A stretch of DNA of 64,000 nt from a bacterium (GCA_035414245.1 DAONYH010000003.1:17630-81629), one strand, 5' to 3'. Positions 1,379-64,000 are shown, counted from the first letter of the stretch. The notes: generated by a model from the sequence alone, not told the origin. Made by a program: numbers and translations.

Positions 1379-2149
1379 TTATAAATCTAGTTCTAAAAGC
1401 ACGGGAGCATGATCAGAACCCGTTACTTCCGTTAAAATATCAGCTTTTTTTAGGTATTTTTTAAGTTTATCGGATACACAAAAATAGTCAATCCGCCAAC
1501 CTACATTACGTTCTCGGGCATTAGAACGGAAACTCCACCAAGAATACTTAATTTTATTTCCATTTAAAGCGCGGAAAGTATCTATCAAACCGGATTTTAA
1601 ATATTTATCCATTGACGCTCTTTCTTCAGGGGTAAAACCAGGACTGCCCACATTTTCCTTAGGACGAGCCAAATCAATTTCTTGATGCGCTACATTAAAA
1701 TCACCGGTGATGATAACCGGTTTTTGCTTAACTAACTTTTTAATATATTTTAACAAAGCTTCGTTAAAATTCAGTTTATAGGTTAAACGACTGAGTTCAG
1801 CATTAGCATTAGGAAAATAAGCATTCAAGAGAAAAAAATGATGAGTATCAGCGGTTTGTACTCGTCCTTCATCGTCAAATATACTTTGACCAAAACCATT
1901 AGTCACTTTTTTCAAATACTTAAAACCTTCTTTAACTAAAATAGCTGTGCCACTATAACCGGGTCTTTTAGCGCTGTGCCAATACTCTAAATAACCGGGA
2001 AAATCCAAATCCGCTTCTAAACGGGCTGTCTCTGAAATCTTCACTTCTTGCAAACATAAAATATCCGGTTTTTCACTTTGCAAAAAATCTAAAAAACCTT
2101 TTTTCCTGATGGCTCTTATTCCATTAACATTCCAAGAAATCAATTTCAT
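1379..2149 (-). CDS. xth: Exodeoxyribonuclease III / AP endonuclease (ExoIII-APE1 family)
   Basis: 256 aa. MKLISWNVNGIRA...LCLQEVK...ITGDFNVAH...WRIDYFCVS...GSDHAPV are the typical EEP-fold ExoIII motifs. Confidence 0.85.
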   Translation of the reverse strand: MKLISWNVNGIRAIRKKGFLDFLQSEKPDILCLQEVKISETARLEADLDFPGYLEYWHSAKRPGYSGTAILVKEGFKYLKKVTNGFGQSIFDDEGRVQTADTHHFFLLNAYFPNANAELSRLTYKLNFNEALLKYIKKLVKQKPVIITGDFNVAHQEIDLARPKENVGSPGFTPEERASMDKYLKSGLIDTFRALNGNKIKYSWWSFRSNARERNVGWRIDYFCVSDKLKKYLKKADILTEVTGSDHAPVLLELDL

Positions 2150-7536: not shown

Positions 7537-7947
7537 CTAAGCGCCTCTGTCCATAGCTTCGTTCGCTAATTGATCTGCAAGCTTATTTCTTTCACGTGGA
7601 ATATGGGTAAAGGTTATTTTTTTAAAACTTAAACTTAAATTATAAATATCTAAAAATAATGGCGCCAAATCTTTGTTTTTAACTTTATATTCTCGATTCA
7701 ACTGACAAACTACCAGTTCACTATCCAAATAACAATTTACTTCTTCAGCCCCAAGCTCTATGGCTTTTTTTAGAGCCAAAATTAAAGCCTGATACTCGGC
7801 TTGATTATTAGTTGCCACTCCTAAATACTTAGATATTTTAGCGAGCACTTCTTGATTTTCATTATATAAAACTGCGCCTACCCCGGCCGGTCCAGGATTA
7901 CCACGCGCCCCGCCATCAGTATAAATAATAATTTTTTTATTTTTCAT
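7537..7947 (-). CDS. rnhA: Ribonuclease HI
   Basis: 136 aa. IYTDGGARGNPGPAGVGAVL...NNQAEYQALILAL...TFTHIPRERNKLADQLA are the canonical RNase H catalytic motifs. Confidence 0.85.
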   Translation of the reverse strand: MKNKKIIIYTDGGARGNPGPAGVGAVLYNENQEVLAKISKYLGVATNNQAEYQALILALKKAIELGAEEVNCYLDSELVVCQLNREYKVKNKDLAPLFLDIYNLSLSFKKITFTHIPRERNKLADQLANEAMDRGA

Positions 7948-7974
7948 ATCGCTTGCCGACTATTTATTAAACGG

Positions 7975-9768
7975 TTATTTACTAAATTTTAAATCAATAA
8001 TTTTTAATTGCGCTTCGCGACGACCATTAAAATCATTTATCTCTAAATAATAAGCTAAATCAACTTGATCGCCTACTTGGAATTGTTTATATTGTTCAGC
8101 TAAACCAAATGCTATCGCCCAAAAACCAGCTACCCGTATTTTAATGTGTTGATTTTCAAAACCCATGAAAACAATATCTTCAATCGTTAAATCATAACTA
8201 ACCAGTTTAGGTTGCAGATTATTTTGACCAAAAGGCGCGAGTTGATTAATTTCTTCCGCTAAATGTAAACTGATTTCTGACATTTTTACTTCTGCTTCTA
8301 TTTCTATTTTAGGCACTAAATTTTGACCAGCTAATTTTTCACTCACCAAACGTTCAATCTTGGTCGTAAATTTAGTTAAATTATCTTCGTTATTGATGGA
8401 AAAACCGCAAGCCATAGGATGTCCGCCATATTTATCTAACTCTTCGGCACAGTCTTCAATAACAGCAATCAAATTCAATTCTGGGATTGAACGTCCCGAA
8501 CCTTTAAAGCTAACTTTTTTAGGAATTAATTTCTTTTTTTCCGGATCAAACTCGGCTGATTCAATTAAACGAGTAATTATTAAAGTGGGCCGATAATATT
8601 TTTCCGCAATTTTTCCCGCTACTAAGCCAATCACCCCTTCATTCCAAATTTCATCTTCGCCCGCAACGCCAATGATGATGTCGGGTAAATTTTCTGAATC
8701 AATTTGTTTCTCAACTTGCGCGATTATTTCTTTAGTGATTTCTTGGCGACTGGCATTACGTCGATTTAATTCCTCGGCTAATTCTTTAGCTTCATTCTCA
8801 TCAGTGGTTGTTAAAAGCGCAAAGGCAGTATTGGCATGACTTAAACGACTGGCCGCATTAAGTCGAGGGGCAATCTGCCAACTAACATTCCAGGCTTCTA
8901 ACTTTTTATCACCATTAGCTTTTGTAGAATTTATTAATTCTTTTAATCCCAACCTGCGATTTTCATTTAAAACTTCCAAACCTTTTTTAACTAACAAACG
9001 ATTTTCACCTAACAAACTAACCATATCAGCAATTGTTCCAACCGCCACTAAATCTAAACATTTTTCGGCAATTAGTTGTTTTTGTTTATCTGATAAATTT
9101 GATTTAAAAAGCAAGGCGCTAATTAACTTAAAGGAAACACCCACACCGGCCAAAAATGGACAGGGATAATTATTGCGTTTATCAGCGGGATTAATTATGG
9201 GACAATCAGGTAAATCTTTTATTTCTTCCGGTAGAACATGATGGTCGGTAATAATTATTTCTAAACCCTTAGCCTTGGCATATTCCACTTCTTCTTTATT
9301 TCTAATACCATTATCAACGGTAATTACTAATTTAAAGCCAGCTTCCAAAATTTGATTAATTGCCATTTTATTTAAACCATAGCCCTCGCTAACACGATCT
9401 GGTAAATAAACTTCCACTTGTGCGTGTAGTAATTTTAAAGTTTCCAGTAAAATGACTGAGGCAGTAACTCCGTCCGCGTCATAATCGCCATAAACCACAA
9501 TTGGATTACCGTCTTTGATGTGTTTAATAATAATATCAACCGCTTGTTCCATATCTTTAAACAAAAACGGATCATAAAAAGCGTAATCAGCTTGACTAGA
9601 AAAAGTGCGCGCCAAATTATCAGCTAATTCTCCATTCAAAAAAGTTTTTATTTCTTCTTCCGACTTTAAGCCACGATTAAAAAGTAATTGCAAAAAAATC
9701 CGACTCATGTTCGGATAAGCCTCGCATTGCTCATCTTTAATTTTTGGCAAAACGCGCCATTCTCTCAT
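7975..9768 (-). CDS. recJ: Single-stranded-DNA-specific exonuclease RecJ (DHH/DHHA1)
   Basis: 597 aa. VVYGDYDADGVTASVILLETL (DHH motifs), ITDHH, and a GGHPMACGFS DHHA1 region. Confidence 0.85.
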   Translation of the reverse strand: MREWRVLPKIKDEQCEAYPNMSRIFLQLLFNRGLKSEEEIKTFLNGELADNLARTFSSQADYAFYDPFLFKDMEQAVDIIIKHIKDGNPIVVYGDYDADGVTASVILLETLKLLHAQVEVYLPDRVSEGYGLNKMAINQILEAGFKLVITVDNGIRNKEEVEYAKAKGLEIIITDHHVLPEEIKDLPDCPIINPADKRNNYPCPFLAGVGVSFKLISALLFKSNLSDKQKQLIAEKCLDLVAVGTIADMVSLLGENRLLVKKGLEVLNENRRLGLKELINSTKANGDKKLEAWNVSWQIAPRLNAASRLSHANTAFALLTTTDENEAKELAEELNRRNASRQEITKEIIAQVEKQIDSENLPDIIIGVAGEDEIWNEGVIGLVAGKIAEKYYRPTLIITRLIESAEFDPEKKKLIPKKVSFKGSGRSIPELNLIAVIEDCAEELDKYGGHPMACGFSINNEDNLTKFTTKIERLVSEKLAGQNLVPKIEIEAEVKMSEISLHLAEEINQLAPFGQNNLQPKLVSYDLTIEDIVFMGFENQHIKIRVAGFWAIAFGLAEQYKQFQVGDQVDLAYYLEINDFNGRREAQLKIIDLKFSK

Positions 9769-34763: not shown

Positions 34764-36227
34764 TTATTTTTTTAACACCTTTTGATAAAGCTCCACGTAT
34801 TTTGAGGCTGGGATTTCCCAGCTATTAGATTGACGCATTACTTTTTTTACTAAACTCGTCCAAATTCTTTTATGCTTTCGATTCTCTAAAGCGCGCACGA
34901 TGGCTGAGTAAAACATGTATGGATCTTCGGCTTTAAAAGTAAAACCATTTCCCTCTTTATTAACCGGATTAAAATTTTCTACTGTATCATGAAGACCGCC
35001 AATTTCTCTCACCACCGGAATACAACCATAGCGCATCGCAATTAACTGATTAATGCCGCATGGCTCATGATTGGACGGCAAAAGAAATAAATCACTGGCC
35101 GCATAAAGTAAAGTCTCACGATTTTGATCAAAGGGCAACCAAATAATTTTTTCCGGAAACTTTCGTTGTAATTTTTTTATGGGCTTAATATATTCTTCGC
35201 TGCCGTCACCCATAAAAACTAATTGTAAATCCATTTTCAAAAGCGGCTCTATTACTTTAACAATTAAATTAAAACCTTTTTGAAAAGTTACGCGCGAAGT
35301 CGTACATAACATTGGAATTTGACCGTTAACGGGCAAACCGATCTTCTTCTGCAAAAATGTTTTGTTATTTACTTTAGCTTCAGGATTATTATGAGTATAA
35401 GTTTTATGCAGCTTCTGATCGTTTTCTGGATTATAGGTATTATAATCAATGCCGTTGATGATACCAAAAAGTCGCTTGGAACGATTTTTTAAAATACGAT
35501 GTAAATCCTGCCCAAACTTTTTAGTCATAATTTCATCGCGATATTGTTCACTAACCGTATTAATAATATCAGCTGACAAAATGGCGCGTTTAGCAAAATT
35601 TATATTTTCAATCTCGGGATTATCAATATGAGGTAAACGGCTGCGACCATAATCTTTTTTCTTAAGCGGCACCTCCCACCAATTATGACCAAATTGAAAA
35701 ATTAAATTATGAATGGTAAAAACCGTTTTAGCTTTTTTTAAAGTTTTTGAATAACGAAAATCATTTTTTAAATAATAAGGAATAAGACCGGTTTGCCAAT
35801 CATGACAATGAATAATATCAACTTGTTTTTTTAAAATTGTTAATAATTTTAAAGCCGCTACATTAAAAACCAAGAAGCGAGCGTTTTCTCTGCCTGAACC
35901 GTATATTTTTTTATGTTTAGAAAAAAACTTTTTACACTCAACAAAATATACCGGCAAATCTTCCATTAAAAAACCTTGCCAATAATTAACCGTAATACTT
36001 TCTTTGCTATTTAAAGATAAATTAACATCAGAAAAAATCAATTTTAGATCTTTTTCTTCTTTATCAATCAAACGCCCATAAAGAGGAGTAATAATTGAAA
36101 CATCATGTCCTAATCTTTTCAAAGCTTTAGGTAAACTTCTCGTTACATCTCCCAACCCGCCGGTTTTAGAAAAAGGCGCTACTTCCGAAGCAATATGAAC
36201 TATTTTTAATTTTTTGGTTTTAGACAT
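34764..36227 (-). CDS. glgA: Glycogen/starch synthase (GT5)
   Basis: 487 aa. KIVHIASEVAPFSKTGGLGDVTRSLPKAL is the canonical GlgA N-terminus (K-T-G-G-L). The C-terminal GT-B domain is present. Confidence 0.8.
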   Translation of the reverse strand: MSKTKKLKIVHIASEVAPFSKTGGLGDVTRSLPKALKRLGHDVSIITPLYGRLIDKEEKDLKLIFSDVNLSLNSKESITVNYWQGFLMEDLPVYFVECKKFFSKHKKIYGSGRENARFLVFNVAALKLLTILKKQVDIIHCHDWQTGLIPYYLKNDFRYSKTLKKAKTVFTIHNLIFQFGHNWWEVPLKKKDYGRSRLPHIDNPEIENINFAKRAILSADIINTVSEQYRDEIMTKKFGQDLHRILKNRSKRLFGIINGIDYNTYNPENDQKLHKTYTHNNPEAKVNNKTFLQKKIGLPVNGQIPMLCTTSRVTFQKGFNLIVKVIEPLLKMDLQLVFMGDGSEEYIKPIKKLQRKFPEKIIWLPFDQNRETLLYAASDLFLLPSNHEPCGINQLIAMRYGCIPVVREIGGLHDTVENFNPVNKEGNGFTFKAEDPYMFYSAIVRALENRKHKRIWTSLVKKVMRQSNSWEIPASKYVELYQKVLKK

Positions 36228-36700
36228 AAATTAGAATTTAAAGCACAAATCGCAATCGCCAAGGCATCGGCGGCATCATCTGGTTTGGGCAACTCTTTCA
36301 AGCCTAAAATTAGTTTAACCATTTTTTGTACTTGGAGTTTGCTCGCTTGGCCATAAGAAGAAACCGCCTGCTTTACTTGCGAAGGTGTATATTCAAGCAC
36401 GGGTAATAATCCTTGTTTTAAAGTTAGAATAGCCACACCGCGCGCCTGACCAACTATCAAAGCCGTTTTAACATTTTTATTGAAAAAAAGTTGCTCAACA
36501 GCGGCGGCCTGAGGTTGATACTTTTTTATAATCTTACTTAATTCTTTATGAAGAAAAAATAAACGATCAGCTAAATTATCTTTAGCTGAAGTTTTAATAG
36601 TTCCATAACAAAGACAACTTAATTTACCTCTTTCTTCTTTAATAACTCCAAAGCCGGTGTCAGCAATGCCGGGGTCAATTCCTAAAATAACCTTAGTCAT
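36206..36700 (-). CDS. ruvC: Holliday junction resolvase RuvC
   Basis: 164 aa. ILGIDPGIADTGFGVI with the catalytic D and later acidic residues. Its start overlaps the glgA end. Confidence 0.85.
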   Translation of the reverse strand: MTKVILGIDPGIADTGFGVIKEERGKLSCLCYGTIKTSAKDNLADRLFFLHKELSKIIKKYQPQAAAVEQLFFNKNVKTALIVGQARGVAILTLKQGLLPVLEYTPSQVKQAVSSYGQASKLQVQKMVKLILGLKELPKPDDAADALAIAICALNSNLCLKPKN

Positions 36701-41383: not shown

Positions 41384-44122
41384 ATGTCTAAAACAAAACC
41401 AAAACTACTAATAATTGATGGTAATGCGATAATTCACCGCAGTTTTCATGCTTTGCCACCAACTTTAAGAACTAAAGATGGAACCTTGGTAAATGCGGTC
41501 TATGGTTTTACCTCCTTTCTTTTAACTGCTCTTAATGAATTTCATCCTGAATATATTATTTTAGCTCTAGATAAAAAGGGGGCAACTTTCCGTCATGAAA
41601 CTTTTGCTGATTACAAGGCAACGCGTATCAAAGCGCCGGATGAATTATATGAACAAATTCCTTTGGTTAAACAAATTGCGCGCGTTTTTGCGATTCCAAT
41701 TTTTGAAAAAACCGGTTTTGAAGCGGATGATTTAATCGGCACTCTTTGTCTTCAAGCGGAAAAAGAAAAAAATTTAGAAACCATTATTATTACCGGCGAT
41801 CTTGATACTCTGCAACTCGTTAGTCATAAAACCAAGGTTTATACGACTAGTCGCGGTTTATCAGAAAGTGTTCTCTATGATGTAGAAAAAATTAAAACCC
41901 GCTTCAACTTAAACCCCAAACAAATTATTGACTTAAAAGCTTTGGCCGGCGATCAAAGTGATAATATTCCTGGCGCTAAAGGCATAGGTCTTAAAACCGC
42001 CACTGATCTCTTAGTTAATTTCAAAAATATTGAAGGTGTTTATCAAGCGGTTGATAAAAAAGATAAAAAAATAAAAGAACGTACCTTGGAATTATTAAAG
42101 GCCTCAAGAGATGATGTTTTCTTAAGCAAATCTTTGGCAACCATAAATTGCAACGCACCAATTGAACTGTCTTTAAAAGAAGCGGCTTTTGCGGGTTTTA
42201 ATTTAGATGAGATTTTAGAATTATTTAGAAAATTAGAATTTAGATCCTTGCTTGATAAAGCGAAATCTCTCAGAGATTATCACCAAAAAAAACAAAGTGA
42301 TAGCCTAGAAATTAAAGAACAAAAAATTAGCGCTAAAAAAGAAAAAAATGATTATCATTTTTTAAAAACAGAAAAAGAGTTTGCTAATTTTTTAAAGACA
42401 CTAAAGAAAAGAAAAGAATTTGCCATTAATTTAAAACTGGAGACCATTAATAATTTTGAAACATCCTTAACCGGCCTATCTTTTTCTTGGTTGAAAAATC
42501 AAGCATTTTTTGTTTTGGTGGATGATAAAAAAATAAAAGCTTTAAAACCGATTTTAGAAAACAAACAAATTCTAAAAACCGGCCACGATTTAAAAACCAC
42601 TTGGCAGGTCTTTAAAAATCTCAACATAGATTTTCAAGGATTAGGATTTGATGTAATGTTAGCCTCATATTTACTTAATCCGGGTGAAAGACGTCATGAT
42701 TTAGACGCGCTGGCTTTTTTAGAACTAGGAATAGACAAATTAACCAATAAAGATATTGCCCCAACCGATAAAACGCAATTAAGTTTTGACTTCTCAAAAC
42801 CTGACCAAGAAAAAATAGCTCTTTTAACTAACGAGGGGGCGGATTTAATTGGACAATTAAAAAAATCTTTGGAAAAAAAGTTAATTAATTTAAAACTCAA
42901 AGAAATTTTTACCACGATTGAGATGCCACTGATAAAAGTTTTGGCTAAAATGGAATACACAGGAATAAAAATTGATCTTGAACCAATTAAAAAATTCCAT
43001 AAAGAAGTAATTGCAAAAATAAAAAAATTAGAAACAGAAATTTATTTTTTAGCGGGCAAAAAATTTAATATTAATTCAACCAAACAACTAAAAGAAATTT
43101 TATTTATTGATTTGGAAATTCCCACTTTTGGCATTAAAAAAACTAAAACCGGTTTCTCTACTGCTGAAGAAGAACTGATAAAATTAAAAGATTTGCATCC
43201 CATAATTCCCTATTTGCAAGATTATCGTGAACTGACAAAATTAGAAACAACTTATTTGAGCGCGCTACCAAAAATTATTAATACGAAAACCGGAAAAATT
43301 CACACTCATTTTAATCAAGCTGTTACGGCTACTGGTCGTCTTTCTTCCAACGATCCGAATTTACAAAATATTCCCGCTCGTACCGAAGAGGGACGAAAAA
43401 TTAGAGAGGCCTTTGTGGCGGAAAAAGGGTTTAAATTACTTGGTCTGGATTATTCACAAATTGAATTACGTTTAGCAGCACACATGTCTCAAGATAAAAA
43501 CATGATTAAGGCTTTCAATGATGGCGAAGATATTCATGCGGCTACTGCAGCTAAAATAAACGACATTCCGCTTGAAAAAGTTTCTAAACAACAAAGACGT
43601 GAAGCTAAGGCAACAAACTTTGGTATTCTTTATGGACAAGGACCTCATGGCCTAAGTCAAGCAGCGGGCATTAATTTTTTTAATGCCAAGGAATTTATAA
43701 AAAAATATTTTGCTAGTTATCCTGGTATTAAAAAAATGGTTGATCATTTTATAAAAGAAGCAGAAAAAAATAATTACGCGATTACTCTTTTTGGTCGCAA
43801 ACGTCCTCTGCCGGATATCAATTCTAGTTTACCGATGGTGAAAAAAGCGGCAGAACGCATGGCTATAAACACTCCTATTCAAGGGACAGCAGCGGATTTG
43901 ATTAAGTTGGCGATGATAAAAATTGGTGATTTAATTGAGCCTAAAAGTGACGAGATTCATTTATTACTCCAAGTTCATGATGAATTAATTTTTGAAGTAA
44001 AAGAAGAAAAGTTGGATTACTATGCCAAAAAAATTAAAAAAGTAATGGAAGAAATTATGAAACTGAAAGTGCCAATTGTGGTTGATGTTTCATGGGGAAA
44101 AAATTGGGGTGAGTTAAAATAA
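41384..44122 (+). CDS. polA: DNA polymerase I (5'-3' exonuclease, 3'-5' exo-like and polymerase domains)
   Basis: 912 aa. LLIIDGNAIIHRSFHAL 5'-nuclease N-terminus; pol motif A DYSQIELR, motif B RREAKATNFGILYG, motif C QVHDEL. Confidence 0.9.
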   Translation: MSKTKPKLLIIDGNAIIHRSFHALPPTLRTKDGTLVNAVYGFTSFLLTALNEFHPEYIILALDKKGATFRHETFADYKATRIKAPDELYEQIPLVKQIARVFAIPIFEKTGFEADDLIGTLCLQAEKEKNLETIIITGDLDTLQLVSHKTKVYTTSRGLSESVLYDVEKIKTRFNLNPKQIIDLKALAGDQSDNIPGAKGIGLKTATDLLVNFKNIEGVYQAVDKKDKKIKERTLELLKASRDDVFLSKSLATINCNAPIELSLKEAAFAGFNLDEILELFRKLEFRSLLDKAKSLRDYHQKKQSDSLEIKEQKISAKKEKNDYHFLKTEKEFANFLKTLKKRKEFAINLKLETINNFETSLTGLSFSWLKNQAFFVLVDDKKIKALKPILENKQILKTGHDLKTTWQVFKNLNIDFQGLGFDVMLASYLLNPGERRHDLDALAFLELGIDKLTNKDIAPTDKTQLSFDFSKPDQEKIALLTNEGADLIGQLKKSLEKKLINLKLKEIFTTIEMPLIKVLAKMEYTGIKIDLEPIKKFHKEVIAKIKKLETEIYFLAGKKFNINSTKQLKEILFIDLEIPTFGIKKTKTGFSTAEEELIKLKDLHPIIPYLQDYRELTKLETTYLSALPKIINTKTGKIHTHFNQAVTATGRLSSNDPNLQNIPARTEEGRKIREAFVAEKGFKLLGLDYSQIELRLAAHMSQDKNMIKAFNDGEDIHAATAAKINDIPLEKVSKQQRREAKATNFGILYGQGPHGLSQAAGINFFNAKEFIKKYFASYPGIKKMVDHFIKEAEKNNYAITLFGRKRPLPDINSSLPMVKKAAERMAINTPIQGTAADLIKLAMIKIGDLIEPKSDEIHLLLQVHDELIFEVKEEKLDYYAKKIKKVMEEIMKLKVPIVVDVSWGKNWGELK

Positions 44123-44140
44123 ATATTTAATTTCAATATA

Positions 44141-45514
44141 ATGACAACTAAAAAACAAAAAACAAAAAATTCAAAAATTGCCTTATTGGGACTTGGACTT
44201 GATAACCTTGCTCTTTTAAATTTATTAGACAAGCATCGCGCTCCAGTTGAAATTACGGTTTGTGATTTTCGCGCCAAAGCACAACTGCCGATCATAAAAA
44301 CAAAAAACTTGAAAATAAATTATCGCCTTGGCGCTCAATTCAACCAAAATTTATCTGATTTTTCTTTACTTTTTCGCTCTCCGGGCTGGCCCATAGCCTG
44401 CCCCGGCATTCAAGCGGCCTTAAAAAATAAAAACACCAAGCTGAGCAGTCCACTAAATTTATTTTTTGAACTTTGTCCAAGTAAAAATATAATTGGCGTG
44501 ACTGGCACTAAAGGCAAAGGAACAACCGCTAGTTTAATTTTTAAAATTTTAGAAGCAAAAAATAAATTGACTAATAAAAAATCGCTTGTTAAACGCCAGG
44601 TCTTTTTAGGCGGAAACATTGGCGTTGCTCCGCTTTCATTTTTAGAAAAAATTAATCCCACTGACTTTGTTGTCTTGGAGTTATCTAGTTTTCAGTTAGA
44701 AGATTTAAAATATTCACCCAAAATTGCTGTAATCACCAATTTATTTAAAGAACATTTGGCGCCGGCTGACCCTAATAATCCGAATTATCATTCTTCATTA
44801 CAAAAATATTGGCAAGCTAAACTTAATATCGCTAAACACAAAGCTAATAAGTTTTTAGTAATCAACCAAAGTCTGAAAGCAAAAATAAAAAGCAGTAAAC
44901 TTGATACGAAAATTATTTTCTTTTCCGCTAATAATTTAAAATCAAAATTAAGTGGTGCTTACAATCAAGAAAATGTGGGCGCTGCGGTAGCTGTGGCGAA
45001 AATACTAAAAATTAAAACTTCAATTTATCAAAAAGTGATTGCTAATTTTTCTAATCTTGAACATCGTTTAGAATTAGTAAAGGAGACAAACAATATTAAA
45101 TATTTTGATAATAGTTTTTCCACTACTCCGGAAAGTACTATTTTGGATTTAAAATCTTTTCCTGAAACAATTATTCAGATTGCGGGTGGAGCTGACAAGG
45201 GCGCTGATTTTTCTGCTTTAGCAAAAACTATCAAACAAAAACAAGTTTTTTTAATTATGCTGCCGGGCAAAGGCTCTAATCGTATTATTAATGAATTGAC
45301 GAAAATTAATTTTCCCGCTAAAAATATTATCCGTGTTAATAATATGGAAGAAGCGGTTAAACTGGCACAAAAAAAAGCCAAACATATCCAAAAAGAAAAT
45401 CCAAAAACAAAAATTGTGGTTTTACTTTCAACCGCTTGCGCTAGTTTTGGAATTTTTAAAAACTACAAAGAAAGAGGCAATTTGTTTAAAGAGTATGTTA
45501 AAAAACATACTTAA
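44141..45514 (+). CDS. murD: UDP-N-acetylmuramoylalanine--D-glutamate ligase
   Basis: 457 aa. N-terminal Rossmann-like domain (IALLGLGLDN), P-loop IGVTGTKGKGTTASLI, and a Mur ligase C-terminal domain. Confidence 0.65.
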   Translation: MTTKKQKTKNSKIALLGLGLDNLALLNLLDKHRAPVEITVCDFRAKAQLPIIKTKNLKINYRLGAQFNQNLSDFSLLFRSPGWPIACPGIQAALKNKNTKLSSPLNLFFELCPSKNIIGVTGTKGKGTTASLIFKILEAKNKLTNKKSLVKRQVFLGGNIGVAPLSFLEKINPTDFVVLELSSFQLEDLKYSPKIAVITNLFKEHLAPADPNNPNYHSSLQKYWQAKLNIAKHKANKFLVINQSLKAKIKSSKLDTKIIFFSANNLKSKLSGAYNQENVGAAVAVAKILKIKTSIYQKVIANFSNLEHRLELVKETNNIKYFDNSFSTTPESTILDLKSFPETIIQIAGGADKGADFSALAKTIKQKQVFLIMLPGKGSNRIINELTKINFPAKNIIRVNNMEEAVKLAQKKAKHIQKENPKTKIVVLLSTACASFGIFKNYKERGNLFKEYVKKHT

Positions 45515-45569
45515 AATATACTAAAAATATAAATAACTAAACGCACAGGACACTAAACGGTACTAAACT

Positions 45570-46538
45570 ATGATAATTTTTTTCTACGGTCCGGAGTCTT
45601 TCTTGAAAAAAAGAAAGCTCCAAGAATTAAAAGATAGATTTATTAAAGAAATCGATGTTGAATCGAATAGTTTAGAAGTGCTTGATGGACAAACGATTGA
45701 TTTAAAAACTTTAAACGAAAAAATTAATACTGGTTCTTTGTTTACTGCTAAGCGAATGATTATTATTAACCAAATTTTTAAAAATAAAAAGAGTAAAATT
45801 TTTTCTGAGCTAGCTACTTATTTAGCAAAAATCGCCAATGAAGATGATAAAATAATAGTTTTTGTTGATGATGAATTAAATACTAAAAAAACACCTCTGA
45901 CAACAGAGCAAAAAAAATTATTTAATTTTTTGGCAAAACAAAAATTCATTCAAGAATTTAAGCCCCTAACTAATGCGGGTTTAATGAATTTTATAAAAAA
46001 AGAAGCTAACAGTTATCATAAAGAAATAAGTCCTTCGGCCGCTTTAGAATTAATTAAAAAAACCGGATCTGATTTATGGCTTATTAGTCAGAGCATTAAA
46101 AAAGCCGCTTTAAGCCAAGAAGAAAAAATTATTTCCCTAGAAACAATAAACGCAACTGCTACCGAAATATTTAATGAAGATATTTTTTCTTTAACGGATG
46201 CGATTAGCGCTAAAAATAAAAAGTTAGCTTTAAAAATACTTGAAGAACAATATGCGGCTGGAAGTGGTGATGAATATTTATTAACAATATTAGTCAGGCA
46301 ATTTAAAAATTTACTGATGATAAAAGATGCTGTAGAAAATAAGGTAAAACCTGACCAAACAGCTAAACAACTCGGCCTTCATCCCTTTGTTGTTAAAAAA
46401 GGATTATTGCAAACACGTAATTTTAAAAAAGAAGAATTAAAATATTTCTTGAATCGTTTGCTTTTTTTAGATTACGCCAACAAGACTGGTCAAAGTGAAA
46501 TTAGAACGGAATTATCTCTATTAATCGCTCAAATTTAA
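45570..46538 (+). CDS. holA: DNA polymerase III delta subunit
   Basis: 322 aa. MIIFFYGPESFLKKRKLQEL is the typical HolA start. The helical C-terminal domains are present. Confidence 0.6.
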   Translation: MIIFFYGPESFLKKRKLQELKDRFIKEIDVESNSLEVLDGQTIDLKTLNEKINTGSLFTAKRMIIINQIFKNKKSKIFSELATYLAKIANEDDKIIVFVDDELNTKKTPLTTEQKKLFNFLAKQKFIQEFKPLTNAGLMNFIKKEANSYHKEISPSAALELIKKTGSDLWLISQSIKKAALSQEEKIISLETINATATEIFNEDIFSLTDAISAKNKKLALKILEEQYAAGSGDEYLLTILVRQFKNLLMIKDAVENKVKPDQTAKQLGLHPFVVKKGLLQTRNFKKEELKYFLNRLLFLDYANKTGQSEIRTELSLLIAQI

Positions 46539-59655: not shown

Positions 59656-60717
59656 CTATTTATCCTCTTTCGCTTGTTCAACTTCCTTGCTTTTGATTTC
59701 CGCTAAAATTGCTTTTCTAATCTCAGCCATTAATTTTTTATCATCTTTTATTGTCTTTTTAGCCACTTCTCGTCCAGTACCTAACTTAATCTCACCAAAA
59801 GAATAGGAATTGCCACTCTTTTTAATTACGCCATATTCGGTTCCTAAATCAACCAAATCACCGGCCACTGAAATACCTTCGTTATACATAATATCAAATT
59901 CACAGGTTTTGAAAGGAGCAGCTACTTTATTTTTTACAATCTTAACTTTAACGCGATTACCAATTATTTTGTCACCCTGTTTAATCTGTGCGGCGCGTCT
60001 CACTTCAACGCGCACTGAGCAATAAAACTTCAAAGCATTACCGCCGGTAGTAGTTTCAGGATTACCGAAGAAAACACCAATTTTATTTCTAATTTGGTTA
60101 ATAAAAATAACCACGGTTTTAGTTTTGGCAATGATGGCGGTTAATTTTCTTAAAGCCTGACTCATTAGTCGCGCTTGTAGACCCATGTGTTGGTCGCCCA
60201 TATCACCTTCAATTTCTTTTTGTGGTACTAAAGCAGCCACACTATCAACCACAATTACATCTACGGCATTGGAGCGAACCAAAGTCTCAACAATTTCCAG
60301 TGCTTGTTCACCACTGTCTGGTTGTGAGAGCAACATCTCTTTGACATTGACTCCAATTTTAGCCGCGTAATCCGGATCAAGAGCATGCTCTGCGTCAACG
60401 AAGGCGGCAATCCCACCAGTTTTTTGTACTTCAGCTACAATGTGTTGTGCCAAAGTAGTTTTACCGGAGGATTCAGGCCCATAAATTTCAATAATTCTTC
60501 CCCGAGGCACGCCACCAATCCCAAACGCGATATCCAAAGACAAACAACCAGTAGAAATAGTATCCACATTAGTTTTACGCGCTTCACCAAAACGCATAAT
60601 AGCTCCTTCGCCAAATTTATTTTTTATTTGTTCAATGGCGCTTAAAGCAGCGGCTTGCTTACTGCTAATATCTTCGCCCTTCTCGCTTAGGGTTTTCTTT
60701 GTTTTTTCTTTAGCCAT
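59656..60717 (-). CDS. recA: Recombinase RecA
   Basis: 353 aa. [23 protein letters not shown] (Walker A), VVDSVAAL, and L1/L2 loop regions. Confidence 0.9.
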
Positions 60718-60887: not shown

Positions 60888-61346
60888 TTACTCCTCTTTT
60901 TCATTATTATTTTCTCCTAAACTGCTTTCTCCCGAATTATTTTCTCTTGAACCACTTTCTCTTGAGCTATTTTCTTTTGACTTAGGAAAAAGTCGCCAAG
61001 TTCTTTGCCAAAAAATTCCTTCTGAATTTTCTAATATTAAAGTTAACCCCTCCTCATCTCTTTCAAATCTGATATATTTTTTAAATTTTTCTTTTAAACC
61101 TTGAGGTTTATTATCAATGTTTCCACTCTCAGTAGTAGTTGCCGACTCAGTTACTTCTGAGTGGCTACCAAAAATTTTTTCTCCTTGTTTAACACCCCAA
61201 TCAGCACCACGATACCAAATTGACTGACGAATTTTTTCTCTTCCCTCTTCATTATTACTATAACGATAGCTAACCATCAGCGTTAAAGCAAAAAATAATG
61301 CCAAAAGAATGATGATTACTAGTGGTTTGTTTAAATATTTACTCAT
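60888..61346 (-). CDS. Small membrane-anchored protein with a C-terminal low-complexity Ser/Glu/Asn/Gly repeat region, hypothetical
   Basis: 152 aa. N-terminal anchor KPLVIIILLALFFALTLMV. C-terminus SRESGSRENNSGESSLGENNNEKEE, encoded by about 5 degenerate 15-nt DNA repeats (TTTCTCYNNNNNNNN) at 60900-60990. The opposite-strand ORF looks like an artefact. Confidence 0.4.
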   Translation of the reverse strand: MSKYLNKPLVIIILLALFFALTLMVSYRYSNNEEGREKIRQSIWYRGADWGVKQGEKIFGSHSEVTESATTTESGNIDNKPQGLKEKFKKYIRFERDEEGLTLILENSEGIFWQRTWRLFPKSKENSSRESGSRENNSGESSLGENNNEKEE

Positions 61347-61365: not shown

Positions 61366-62637
61366 TTACTGCCAAAGTGACTTAGTGGTAAAGGGACGAT
61401 TTTCATTATTAAATAATTTTATTTCTCCGTATTGTCCATCAAACCCGGGTGTAATTAATAAATCTTGATTTCTCATTTTTTCAATTCCCAAAATTATTCT
61501 AGCATCAATTTCTTTTTTTACTGATTCTAAATCTAAATCCAATAAAATATGTAATTCATTGCCAAAATCTCTGATTAAACGTTCATATTCCTGTCTCACT
61601 TTCAAGGCACCGCGGCTTTTAATCCCTAAAGCCTCCTTTATTATTTTATCTAATTCTATCAGCTTTTTAAAGGGAACAGCTTTTTGCGGCTTATATCCTT
61701 CAGGTCGGTCAGCTAAGGACTCAACCCGATTTAAAACTCCGATTACCAAGGGTTTATGGCAAACCGGACAAAGATTATTTAACTTTTTACTTTCTTGAGG
61801 CGCGCAGGAAAAATTACAATCGCGATGGCCATCAAAATGGTACATACCCTCTTCAGGATAAAATTCAATTGTATAAGCTAACCCTTGCTCCACGGTTTGT
61901 TTTTTCTCTTTTATAATCTCATAAATTTGCTCGTAAGTAATTGGCTCAAGCAAATTCATTACTGTTGCTTCGCGACCAATGTTAACCGGGCTATGAGCAT
62001 CTGAACTAGATAAAACTGTTAGTTTATCTAGGGCGGATAAGCGCCAATTCATGGCGGGATCACTAGATAGGCCGGTTTCATAAGCAAAAATATTTTTTGT
62101 TTCTTCTTTAAAACATTCCTCTAAGGTATCAAAGCCAGACTTAGAGCCAAAAACCGCAAACCAAGGTGTCCAAATATGAGCTGGATAAATTAAAAACTGG
62201 GGATGAATATTTAAAAGTAAACGAACAAAATCCGGTGCCTTAATTCCTAAAATCGGTCGCCCGTCTGAACGAATATTATATTTTTTATCTAAAAAATTAT
62301 TTAATTCCCGAGCCGCTTTCAAATTAGGGGCATGAATCACTAAATGGATGCGCCGCGTTTTTTCATTATCTTTATAAATTAAAGCTACTTCGGTAGAAAA
62401 AATAAATTTAACTAAATCATCGGTGGCTGATTTTAATTTGTATAATCCACTACCCGCAAATGTTTCTTCCAGTTCTTGATTAATCGCTCTAAACCAATCC
62501 GGATAAGTAAAATCTCCAGTGGCAATTATGTTAACTCCTTTTTCGCGACAGGTTTTATCAATATTAGCTAAGGTTAACTGCGGCGAACAAGCGCGAGAAT
62601 AAGGAGAGTGAATATGAAGATCCAAAACTTGTTTCAT
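61366..62637 (-). CDS. Endonuclease Q-like protein (PHP-domain nuclease with C-terminal Cys4 zinc ribbon)
   Basis: 423 aa. DLHIHSPYS, GTGDFTYPDW, RRIHLVIHAP, PAHIWTPW, SSSDAHSP, Cys4 CNFSC...CPVCHKP, and C-terminal TPGFDGQYGEIKLF. Motif order and spacing are as in archaeal EndoQ, recalled from memory. Confidence 0.6.
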   Translation of the reverse strand: MKQVLDLHIHSPYSRACSPQLTLANIDKTCREKGVNIIATGDFTYPDWFRAINQELEETFAGSGLYKLKSATDDLVKFIFSTEVALIYKDNEKTRRIHLVIHAPNLKAARELNNFLDKKYNIRSDGRPILGIKAPDFVRLLLNIHPQFLIYPAHIWTPWFAVFGSKSGFDTLEECFKEETKNIFAYETGLSSDPAMNWRLSALDKLTVLSSSDAHSPVNIGREATVMNLLEPITYEQIYEIIKEKKQTVEQGLAYTIEFYPEEGMYHFDGHRDCNFSCAPQESKKLNNLCPVCHKPLVIGVLNRVESLADRPEGYKPQKAVPFKKLIELDKIIKEALGIKSRGALKVRQEYERLIRDFGNELHILLDLDLESVKKEIDARIILGIEKMRNQDLLITPGFDGQYGEIKLFNNENRPFTTKSLWQ

Positions 62638-62659
62638 TTATTTTAAGATTTCATTTATT

Positions 62660-63400
62660 TTAAGAATTGATTAAATTTTCCGCGATTTTTAACTCATCAG
62701 GACTATTAATTCCCATTGCTTCTCGAGGTTCAATAGTCACGGAGCCGACTTTATAGCCCTCTTTAAAAGCAATACCAACCATATCAGTTAAATAAAACTC
62801 TTTGGCTTTATTTTCATTTTTTAATTTATTAATATTGGCAAACAACCAATCTTTATTAAAACACATAAAACCGGGATTAACTTCGGTTATTTGTTTTTCA
62901 ACTTCACTCGCATCCTTGGCTTCAATAATTGCTTTGATTTCTCCTTTTTCATTTCTCACAAAACGTCCCCAGCCATAAAAATTGTGATGCCAGCCAGAAA
63001 AATCCGGTAAAATCGTAGGCATAACTGTAACTGCTTCTGGTTCAAGAGCAGCAAATTTTTTAATTGAATTGGCAGTTAAAAATGGATGGTCGCCATACAA
63101 AACAATAATCTTTTTTGTTTCTGGTTTTATCTTGGGCTGCGCGCAAGAAACAGCATGACCAGTACCTAGTTGTTGGTCTTGAATAGCGTATTCAGCCTTA
63201 TAATTACTTAAAGCTTGTTTGATAATTTCTTTATTTTCCGGTGAAACAATGACAATTGGTTGAGGATCAACCGCTGCTTCTTTAACTTGTTCCATTAAAT
63301 ATTGAATCATGGGCTTACCATTTAAAGGCACCAGCACTTTAGGAATGTCTTGCCCCATGCGCGTTCCCTTGCCAGCTGCTAAAATAACAATTTGTGTCAT
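62660..63400 (-). CDS. Sugar-1-phosphate nucleotidyltransferase (GlmU N-terminal-domain-like / NTP_transferase)
   Basis: 246 aa. IVILAAGKGTRMGQDIPKVLVPLNGKPMIQY is the G-x-G-T-R-(M/L) nucleotidyltransferase signature. There is no left-handed beta-helix acetyltransferase domain. Confidence 0.7.
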   Translation of the reverse strand: MTQIVILAAGKGTRMGQDIPKVLVPLNGKPMIQYLMEQVKEAAVDPQPIVIVSPENKEIIKQALSNYKAEYAIQDQQLGTGHAVSCAQPKIKPETKKIIVLYGDHPFLTANSIKKFAALEPEAVTVMPTILPDFSGWHHNFYGWGRFVRNEKGEIKAIIEAKDASEVEKQITEVNPGFMCFNKDWLFANINKLKNENKAKEFYLTDMVGIAFKEGYKVGSVTIEPREAMGINSPDELKIAENLINS

Positions 63401-63496: not shown

Positions 63497-64000
63497 TTAC
63501 CTTATATAAGCCAAAATTTTGTCTTTTAATGCCTTAACTTGAGCGGCTGCCAAGGCCTGACTTTTAGCTTCAGCATATATTCTAATAATTGGTTCAGTAT
63601 TAGAAGCTCGTAAATGAACCCAGGAATCTTCAAAATCAATTTTCAAACCATCAATCTCGGTAATTTTTTCCGTTTGATAATCATTTTTAATTTTTTCCAA
63701 AATTTCATTTAATTTAATTTTAGTGATTTCAGCGGTTAATTCTATTTTGTCTTTAATCATAAAATATTCCGGCAATGTCTTTCTTAAAGCCGAAGCTTTT
63801 TGTTTTGCTTGCGCTAGGGCGCTTAAAAATAAAGCAGTACCCACTAAAGCATCACGTCCATAATGAAGCGCCGGAAAAATTATTCCACCATTTCCCTCAC
63901 CGCCAATAACCGCCTTAATTTCTTTCATCTTATTAACGACATGCACTTCACCCACAGCCGCGGCTTCGTAATGAGCATTATGCTTGGTGCTAATATCTTT
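63497..64000 (-). CDS. Phosphohexomutase (GlmM/ManB family), C-terminal part. The ORF continues past the window end, so the N-terminus is not in the window.
   Basis: The minus-strand reading frame is open through 64000 (...KDISTKHNAHYEAAAVGEVHVVNKMKEIKAVIGGEGNGGIIFP...). The GGE-x-xG-G loop and C-terminal domain are typical of alpha-D-phosphohexomutases. The ORF track's start at 63955 is a GTG within the longer frame. Confidence 0.55.
   Translation of the reverse strand, partial: KDISTKHNAHYEAAAVGEVHVVNKMKEIKAVIGGEGNGGIIFPALHYGRDALVGTALFLSALAQAKQKASALRKTLPEYFMIKDKIELTAEITKIKLNEILEKIKNDYQTEKITEIDGLKIDFEDSWVHLRASNTEPIIRIYAEAKSQALAAAQVKALKDKILAYIR

Follow-up and report, generated by a model that had tools for sequence, protein, structure and literature searches.

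Does an open reading frame (ORF) lying close to recA in a bacterial genome encode an endonuclease Q (EndoQ), and does its place beside recA say anything about what the protein does? The question is raised by a stretch of 64,000 nucleotides of bacterial DNA (GCA_035414245.1, DAONYH010000003.1:17630-81629), referred to here at its full length as the window, in which GC content is ~35% throughout. An earlier note, made from the sequence alone, had placed an EndoQ-like deaminated-base endonuclease of 423 amino acids (aa) at positions 61366 to 62637; the coordinates proved to be exact, with the ORF on the minus strand. From the evidence set out below, the ORF is very probably a stand-alone member of the bacterial EndoQ family, with an activity expected by analogy with characterised enzymes, and its position at the side of recA is most readily explained by inherited gene order. 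The parts of the gene are as follows, with equivalent residues of the Pyrococcus furiosus enzyme (PfuEndoQ) marked Pfu and model confidence given as the predicted local distance difference test (pLDDT).

61366-62637, minus strand: endoQ ORF, ATG start, 423 aa plus stop codon.
61858-62637, minus strand: PHP catalytic domain, residues 1-260 (Pfu 1-238).
61657-61857, minus strand: Zn-binding domain, residues 261-327 (Pfu 239-303).
61759-61827, minus strand: zinc site, residues 271-293, with predicted ligands H271, C274, C290 and C293.
61408-61656, minus strand: C-terminal helical domain, residues 328-410 (Pfu 304-382 and beyond).
61369-61407, minus strand: disordered C-terminal tail, residues 411-423, NNENRPFTTKSLWQ, with pLDDT <50 at 417-423.

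Every motif in the EndoQ series listed by the note could be found in the translation, namely DLHIHSPYS (residues 6-14), ATGDFTYPDW (39-48), RRIH (95-98), PAHIWTPW (152-159), SSSDAHSP (210-217) and GQYGEI (401-406). Alignment with the P. furiosus enzyme, which had been proposed there as a check, gave a full-length match: in a phmmer search against all PDB sequences, PfuEndoQ (5zb8, 7k30-7k33) was the sole significant match (E 4.9e-45), aligned over query residues 6-408 and chain residues 6-382 and with the Zn-binding and C-terminal helical domains both covered. An AlphaFold2 model of the window protein, for which the input alignment held 51 sequences, had a mean pLDDT of 87.9 and a predicted template modelling score (pTM) of 0.89; confidence was low at the Trp-wedge loop (158-160) and in the final seven residues, as expected of flexible elements. 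When this model was compared with the PDB using Foldseek, 5zb8 and 7k30 were returned with TMq of 0.78-0.82 and TMt of 0.83-0.87, the alignments covering 412-414 columns at ~30% identity. The PfuEndoQ alignment through residue 382, the predicted secondary structure and this fold alignment of 412-414 columns place the end of the C-terminal helical domain at PGFDGQYGEIKLF.

For comparison of individual residues, PfuEndoQ 6-382 was rebuilt from the phmmer alignment, with its numbering verified by the residues that the structure paper names, and a multiple sequence alignment (MSA) was made in which PfuEndoQ was joined by the window protein, by 120 close homologues and by the EndoQ portions of 141 from the 150 distant representatives. 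The six ligands of the two-zinc centre, Pfu H8, H10, E76, H84, H139 and D193, correspond to H8, H10, E83, H98, H154 and D213 of the window protein, all six being identical, and the essential Pfu R114 and H195 correspond to R127 and H215. Of the 261 relatives, 260 have His at the H8 position; the five remaining ligands, together with R127 and H215, were invariant. The pocket and wedge residues Pfu T142, W144, E167, G169, L170 and S171 (T157, W159, E187, G189, L190 and S191 in the window protein) are likewise identical, and are invariant or nearly so across the 261 relatives. The roles of the metal ligands and of the essential and pocket residues come from mutagenesis and structures (PMC5961232), and H139, G169 and S171 of PfuEndoQ sterically exclude thymine and adenine from the pocket (PMC8307549). 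The window protein is, as judged from these alignments, an EndoQ homologue with a predicted intact catalytic centre and lesion pocket, an identity in which sequence, conserved residues and predicted fold agree.

That the ORF encodes a generic PHP phosphoesterase, acting on nucleotides or other phosphate esters and not as a lesion-specific DNA endonuclease, is in our judgement extremely improbable. The Pfam scan returned only a weak, sub-threshold match to PHP_C (E 0.029), and the score for the best NCBIfam model, given below, lies under the trusted cut-off, both of which would be in keeping with such an esterase. The EndoQ match, however, spans three domains, two of which (Zn-binding and C-terminal helical) are absent from generic PHP esterases; the esterases 2anu, 3o0f and 7rty, which were the next matches in the Foldseek comparison, reach TMq 0.31-0.37 only; and the base-discriminating residues H154, G189 and S191 and the wedge W159 are conserved. 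The earlier note had named, as the outcome that would speak against EndoQ, best homologues among generic PHP proteins without the zinc ribbon and C-terminal helical domain; instead, EndoQ gave the best matches.

Several observations weigh against the assignment to EndoQ and were considered in turn, beginning with the scores and the DNA-contact residues. The best NCBIfam model for the window protein, TIGR00375 (E 1.9e-41), scored 142.7 bits, below its trusted cut-off of 326.6; this cut-off was also missed by two bacterial relatives, P0121 (183 bits) and P0225 (174 bits), and the model seems to have been fitted to a different branch of the EndoQ family. Three basic residues of PfuEndoQ, R201, K243 and K276, are replaced in the window protein by N219, M265 and V298, and a fourth basic DNA-contact residue, R251, by D273. 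The PfuEndoQ mutants R201A and K243A are strongly impaired, and mutation of K276 also impairs the enzyme (PMC5961232). The equivalence of R201 and N219 is uncertain, the alignment around R201 being gapped, and Lys is kept at the R201 and K243 positions in relatives that are fused to a helicase (see below). Because the basic DNA-contact residues vary among homologues, they are not family-defining.

The second such observation concerns the zinc site, which the note had described as a Cys4 zinc ribbon. Four cysteines are literally present in the segment DCNFSC...CPVC, at residues 274, 278, 290 and 293, but the aligned site more plausibly reads His-Cys3, with Cys278 as an extra residue. In both the phmmer alignment and the MSA the predicted ligands H271, C274, C290 and C293 are in register with Pfu C249, C252, C268 and C271, the first of them being His271 where PfuEndoQ has Cys249. 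His was found at this first position in 269 of 270 bacterial sequences, with the other three ligands invariant, whereas Cys278, four residues past the second ligand, was found in 119 of 120 close relatives and in 6 of 150 distant representatives. An extra Cys three residues past the second ligand is present in 38 of the 128 fusion proteins. Since His is near-universal at the first position and Cys278 is confined to the clade of the window protein, the family-wide bacterial site is predicted most likely to be His-Cys3, and Cys278 could substitute as a ligand within that clade.

The third concerns the C-terminal tail. In archaea, a PIP box at the C-terminus of EndoQ binds PCNA and stimulates cleavage, and bacterial EndoQ homologues have been reported with a beta-clamp-binding consensus at the same end (PMC4858679); the clamp-binding motif has been defined as Q-phi-x-[LM]-[FL] (PMC11139829). 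We looked for Q-x-x-[LMIF]-[FLWYI] inside the last 8 residues, and found it in 75 of the 104 close homologues with a tail of at least 12 residues and in 16 of 22 stand-alone representatives, against ~1% expected by chance in each set. Endings typical of the relatives are RQKSLL, QNKLF and QISLW. The tail of the window protein, TKSLWQ, is degenerate, with Thr in place of Gln, Lys at position 2 and Trp as the final hydrophobic residue; it does not conform to the canonical motif and is predicted to be disordered. In its nearest relatives the motif is likewise degenerate or truncated, and some have no tail at all. Because the motif is degenerate by the published definition, clamp binding by the window EndoQ is doubtful as far as the tail can be read, and the pattern suggests that selection on clamp tethering may have been relaxed in its subclade.

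The last observation of this kind is that a literature search returned nothing joining endonuclease Q and Patescibacteria, and activity in that group would follow by analogy. EndoQ has been described as mainly euryarchaeal, with few bacterial cases (PMC4858679, PMC8307549), and the earlier note had likewise placed it in only scattered bacteria, a view that did not survive the searches. A word-indexed search, capped at 8000 scored candidates, gave at least 7999 EndoQ clusters at 90% identity, the best 120 of which are 64-93% identical to the window protein; when 1.84 billion 50%-identity representatives were searched exhaustively, 3110 matched at E<=1e-3, with 893 at E<=1e-30. Among the close matches, NCBI already uses the name "endonuclease Q family protein" for proteins of the Patescibacteria group and Saccharimonadales with 67-75% identity to the window protein, and others are called "TIGR00375 family" by JGI; homologues also bear the precomputed label PF27218. 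A species-level genome collection yielded 134 confirmed candidates, and all analyses of loci rest on the 80 loci kept from these, which are nearly all from metagenome-assembled genomes (MAGs) of Falkowbacteria, Magasanikbacteria, Kuenenbacteria, Parcubacteria or unclassified Patescibacteria; most of the named related loci are Falkowbacteria. There is thus nothing unusual in the window gene as a member of this family, which Patescibacteria have in abundance and for which a name is in use in that lineage.

Some of the database titles do not fit this distribution. Many TPA MAG records (loci L002, L004-L007, L012, L013 and others) carry the title "uncultured Gammaproteobacteria bacterium" and have an endoQ-recA block of Patescibacteria type, at identities of 65-73%, and the labels Planctomycetota, Flavobacteriaceae and Nanoarchaeia each occur at a single locus. 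The Gammaproteobacteria, Planctomycetota, Flavobacteriaceae and Nanoarchaeia titles look like placeholder or mis-binned taxonomy.

How the protein would act can be modelled on P. furiosus EndoQ for the steps up to cleavage, the step assigned to DNA polymerase I (Pol I) being a further extrapolation. The PHP, Zn-binding and C-terminal helical domains of EndoQ would form a cleft in which duplex DNA is bound, and a deaminated or missing base (uracil, hypoxanthine or an apurinic/apyrimidinic [AP] site) would be flipped into a small pocket lined by H154, T157, E187, G189, L190, S191 and D213, with W159 serving as the wedge. Cleavage of the phosphodiester bond immediately 5' of the lesion would follow, carried out by Zn ions that H8, H10, E83, H98, H154 and D213 hold in place. 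The resulting nick would most likely be extended by Pol I, whose 5'-3' exonuclease would remove the lesion by nick translation, with ligation to follow. Candidate partners are encoded elsewhere in the window.

1379-2149, minus strand: xth, exodeoxyribonuclease III (TIGR00633, 308.8 bits against a cut-off of 99.05; Pfam Exo_endo_phos).
41384-44122, plus strand: polA (DNA_pol_A, E 1e-152; 5_3_exonuc_N, E 7e-52), with a putative role in the pathway.
7537-9768 (minus strand), 36206-36700 (minus strand) and 41384-46538 (plus strand): the DNA-metabolism genes rnhA, recJ, ruvC, polA and holA.

Xth, which the note had placed correctly, is predicted to supply a conventional AP endonuclease in parallel with EndoQ. 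The Pol I of the window carries both 5'-3' and 3'-5' exonuclease domains, and holA encodes the delta subunit of DNA polymerase III. These genes (xth, rnhA, recJ, ruvC, polA and holA) are scattered among housekeeping genes, and the DNA-metabolism gene complement within the 64-kb window is not obviously minimal, where the note had supposed a minimal repair repertoire for the genome.

Does the position next to recA mean that the two genes work together? The genes on either side of endoQ are the following.

63497-63955, minus strand: glmM, phosphoglucosamine/phosphohexose mutase, C-terminal part.
62660-63400, minus strand: glmU-like sugar-1-phosphate nucleotidyltransferase (Pfam NTP_transf_3, NTP_transferase).
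60888-61346, minus strand: small gene of 152 aa, between endoQ and recA.
59656-60717, minus strand: recA (Pfam RecA, E 5.7e-136).

The note had described the gene as encoded next to recA, in a recA-proximal DNA-repair neighbourhood. The first part stands in so far as recA lies close by, downstream and on the same strand, with the 152-aa ORF in between; the second does not, the real order being glmM, glmU (N-terminal domain), endoQ, small gene and recA, and this in close relatives only. The glmU-like gene matches positions 2-236 of the 452 positions of the glmU model TIGR01173, and because only this N-terminal uridyltransferase half is matched, its product is predicted to be without the acetyltransferase domain. 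Between the glmU-like stop codon and the endoQ start there are 22 bp, and the small gene starts 19 bp past the endoQ stop.

As a separate observation on the upstream junction, the 22 bp between the glmU-like gene and endoQ, together with the bases just upstream (62638-62675, minus strand), contain a tandem duplication of 'taaaataaatgaaa', which yields a three-codon mini-ORF (ATG AAA TCT TAA) immediately ahead of the endoQ start codon.

Searches with Pfam, NCBIfam and PADLOC gave nothing for the 152-aa small gene. The spacer of 350-1000 bp between endoQ and recA contains a small ORF, 117-229 aa long, at 28 of 32 recA-adjacent loci (equivalent spacer ORFs in L001-L024, L032, L033, L037, L051 and L068). 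These spacer ORFs have a hydrophobic N-terminal segment that is similar across loci and, judged by eye from the sequences, resembles a membrane helix; the remainder is fast-evolving and poorly conserved.

Synteny was examined by tblastn of the proteins neighbouring endoQ in the window against the 80 loci. The block glmM, glmU-like gene, endoQ, spacer and recA, followed by convergent adk, HU and rny, is conserved in the closest relatives. When the informative loci are grouped by the identity of their EndoQ to the window protein, recA lies directly downstream as follows.

EndoQ identity of at least 70%: 10 of 10 informative loci.
EndoQ identity of 64-70%: 18 of 22 informative loci.
EndoQ identity of 60-64%: 4 of 15 informative loci.
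EndoQ identity of 50-60%: 0 of 16 informative loci.

At four loci recA is 3-4 kb away (one in the 64-70% band and three in the 50-60% band), and the order glmM, glmU-like gene, endoQ and recA is lost at identities of 62% and below. Because recA adjacency decays with EndoQ divergence, the likeliest account of it is a gene order inherited within one clade, with no positive support for functional coupling.

A functional repair operon, in which nicks or gaps made by EndoQ were handed to RecA, would account for the two genes lying on the same strand, for terminator-like hairpins occurring only after recA and not between the genes, and for the adjacency at 32 related loci. We regard such an operon as unlikely, since the adjacency fades with divergence to none of the 16 loci at 50-60% identity, as inherited order would predict, and since an unrelated small gene of membrane-protein-like character intervenes at 28 of the 32 adjacent loci. 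An AT-rich gap of 170 bp separates the small gene from recA and contains a promoter-like hexamer pair at 60799-60770, which makes a promoter of recA's own likely, although the scans for promoters and terminators gave weak signals, with fewer promoter-like sites than in shuffled sequence, and offer a hint only. The conserved block moreover includes glmM and the glmU-like gene, both of them cell-wall precursor genes, and at the loci examined neither the fusion relatives nor the stand-alone representatives showed linkage to recA or to a helicase. Inherited gene order therefore remains our explanation for the position of endoQ beside recA.

Among more distant relatives a different association became apparent. 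The 150 nearest 50%-identity representatives, from which the fusion sample (P0127-P0270) was taken, are 41-59% identical to the window EndoQ, and 107 of them are longer than 900 aa (~1000-1250 aa), with an N-terminal EndoQ and a complete UvrD/PcrA-type superfamily 1 (SF1) helicase. EndoQ residues 1 to ~415 are followed in these proteins by a helicase of ~700 aa, which matches Pfam UvrD-helicase at E 1e-68 to 1e-73 as well as UvrD_C. One of them (P0225, Neomoorella glycerini WP_156272870.1), annotated "ATP-dependent DNA helicase Rep", matches both NCBIfam pcrA/uvrD and TIGR00375, and another (P0143, Desulfosarcinaceae MDJ0782777.1) is annotated "UvrD-helicase domain-containing protein"; public annotation of the fusions goes no further than such helicase names. 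A clamp motif lies ~15 residues past the EndoQ domain in 85 of 121 fusions (~8% expected by chance) and another at the extreme C-terminus in 82 of 103, with the consensus Q-L-[SEK]-L-F; both occur together in 62 of 103. The papers found to name both EndoQ and UvrD are general repair reviews, the titles and abstracts of which suggest no EndoQ-UvrD fusion.

The fusions group together in a neighbour-joining tree with PfuEndoQ as its root, and the stand-alone forms, including the clade of the window protein, lie outside their cluster; the tree was built from rough BLOSUM distances with one outgroup and the 150 representatives nearest the query, and a basal placement of the stand-alone forms can be offered only tentatively. 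A split fusion was considered for the window and rejected: tblastn with the helicase halves of two fusions found no UvrD-like gene in the window or in the flanks of the 80 loci. Separately, several EndoQ homologues (P0126, P0128, P0161 and P0203) are split by one or more inteins of the LAGLIDADG homing-endonuclease type within the PHP domain.

A wider reading, possible but on balance doubtful, is that bacterial EndoQ constitutes a clamp-tethered, glycosylase-independent "nick-and-unwind" repair system, in which the stand-alone Patescibacterial enzyme, that of the window included, would belong to a basal stand-alone grade, a large derived bacterial branch would be fused to UvrD/PcrA and carry two clamp motifs, and EndoQ with Pol I and Xth might form the main route by which uracil and hypoxanthine are removed in repair-poor Patescibacteria. 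No description of bacterial EndoQ in these terms was found in the literature searched. The fusion architecture points to a possible downstream step, namely unwinding by the helicase from the EndoQ nick on the sliding clamp.

It is also conceivable that the protein serves mainly to defend against phage DNA that contains uracil or is modified in some other way, and not in genome maintenance. An anti-phage role has been proposed for the EndoQ of Bacillus pumilus and B. subtilis (PMC8307549), and the chemistry of the enzyme is compatible with one. For the window gene we hold this to be very unlikely: neither EndoQ nor the small neighbouring ORF had a PADLOC match, the context of endoQ is a stable housekeeping one that is conserved across species and not a variable defence island, and the relatives bear replication-clamp-binding motifs or helicase fusions of the kind typical of repair proteins.

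The window gene by itself adds little, being recognisable as an EndoQ homologue and of a type already named in public annotation. The fusions of its relatives, with their double clamp motifs, are the more interesting lead and lie outside the window. Because the databases hold thousands of bacterial clusters, with a conserved, probable His-Cys3 site, C-terminal clamp motifs and a dominant EndoQ-UvrD fusion architecture, these sequences suggest that glycosylase-independent repair of deaminated bases may be a mainstream, uncharacterised bacterial pathway.

Compared with known systems, the window protein shares its PHP/Zn-binding/C-terminal helical architecture with PfuEndoQ (PF1551; 5ZB8, 7K30-7K33), at ~30% identity over ~400 residues. 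It differs in having a beta-hairpin insertion of ~7 residues between E83 and H98, in having a degenerate remnant of the bacterial clamp motif where PfuEndoQ has a PIP box (QRTLLQYI), and in its host, a mesophilic, low-GC bacterium. The EndoQ of B. pumilus and B. subtilis, for which PMC8307549 cites the characterisation by Shiraishi et al. 2017, is likewise stand-alone, a comparison made with the window protein by description only. The clamp consensus reported for bacterial EndoQ is common to most Patescibacterial relatives, whereas the motif's Gln has been lost from the window protein. Over their N-terminal ~415 residues the fusions show 41-50% identity to the window protein and have the same catalytic, pocket and His-Cys3 residues; they carry in addition a C-terminal SF1 helicase and usually two QLxLF motifs, in contrast to the stand-alone window protein. 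Endonuclease V (Nfi) and nucleases of the ExoIII/Mth212 type also nick DNA in glycosylase-independent repair of deaminated bases, endonuclease V cleaving the second bond 3' of the lesion (PMC8307549), but their folds (RNase H-like and EEP, respectively) are unrelated to that of EndoQ, and the Xth of the window is a separate gene.

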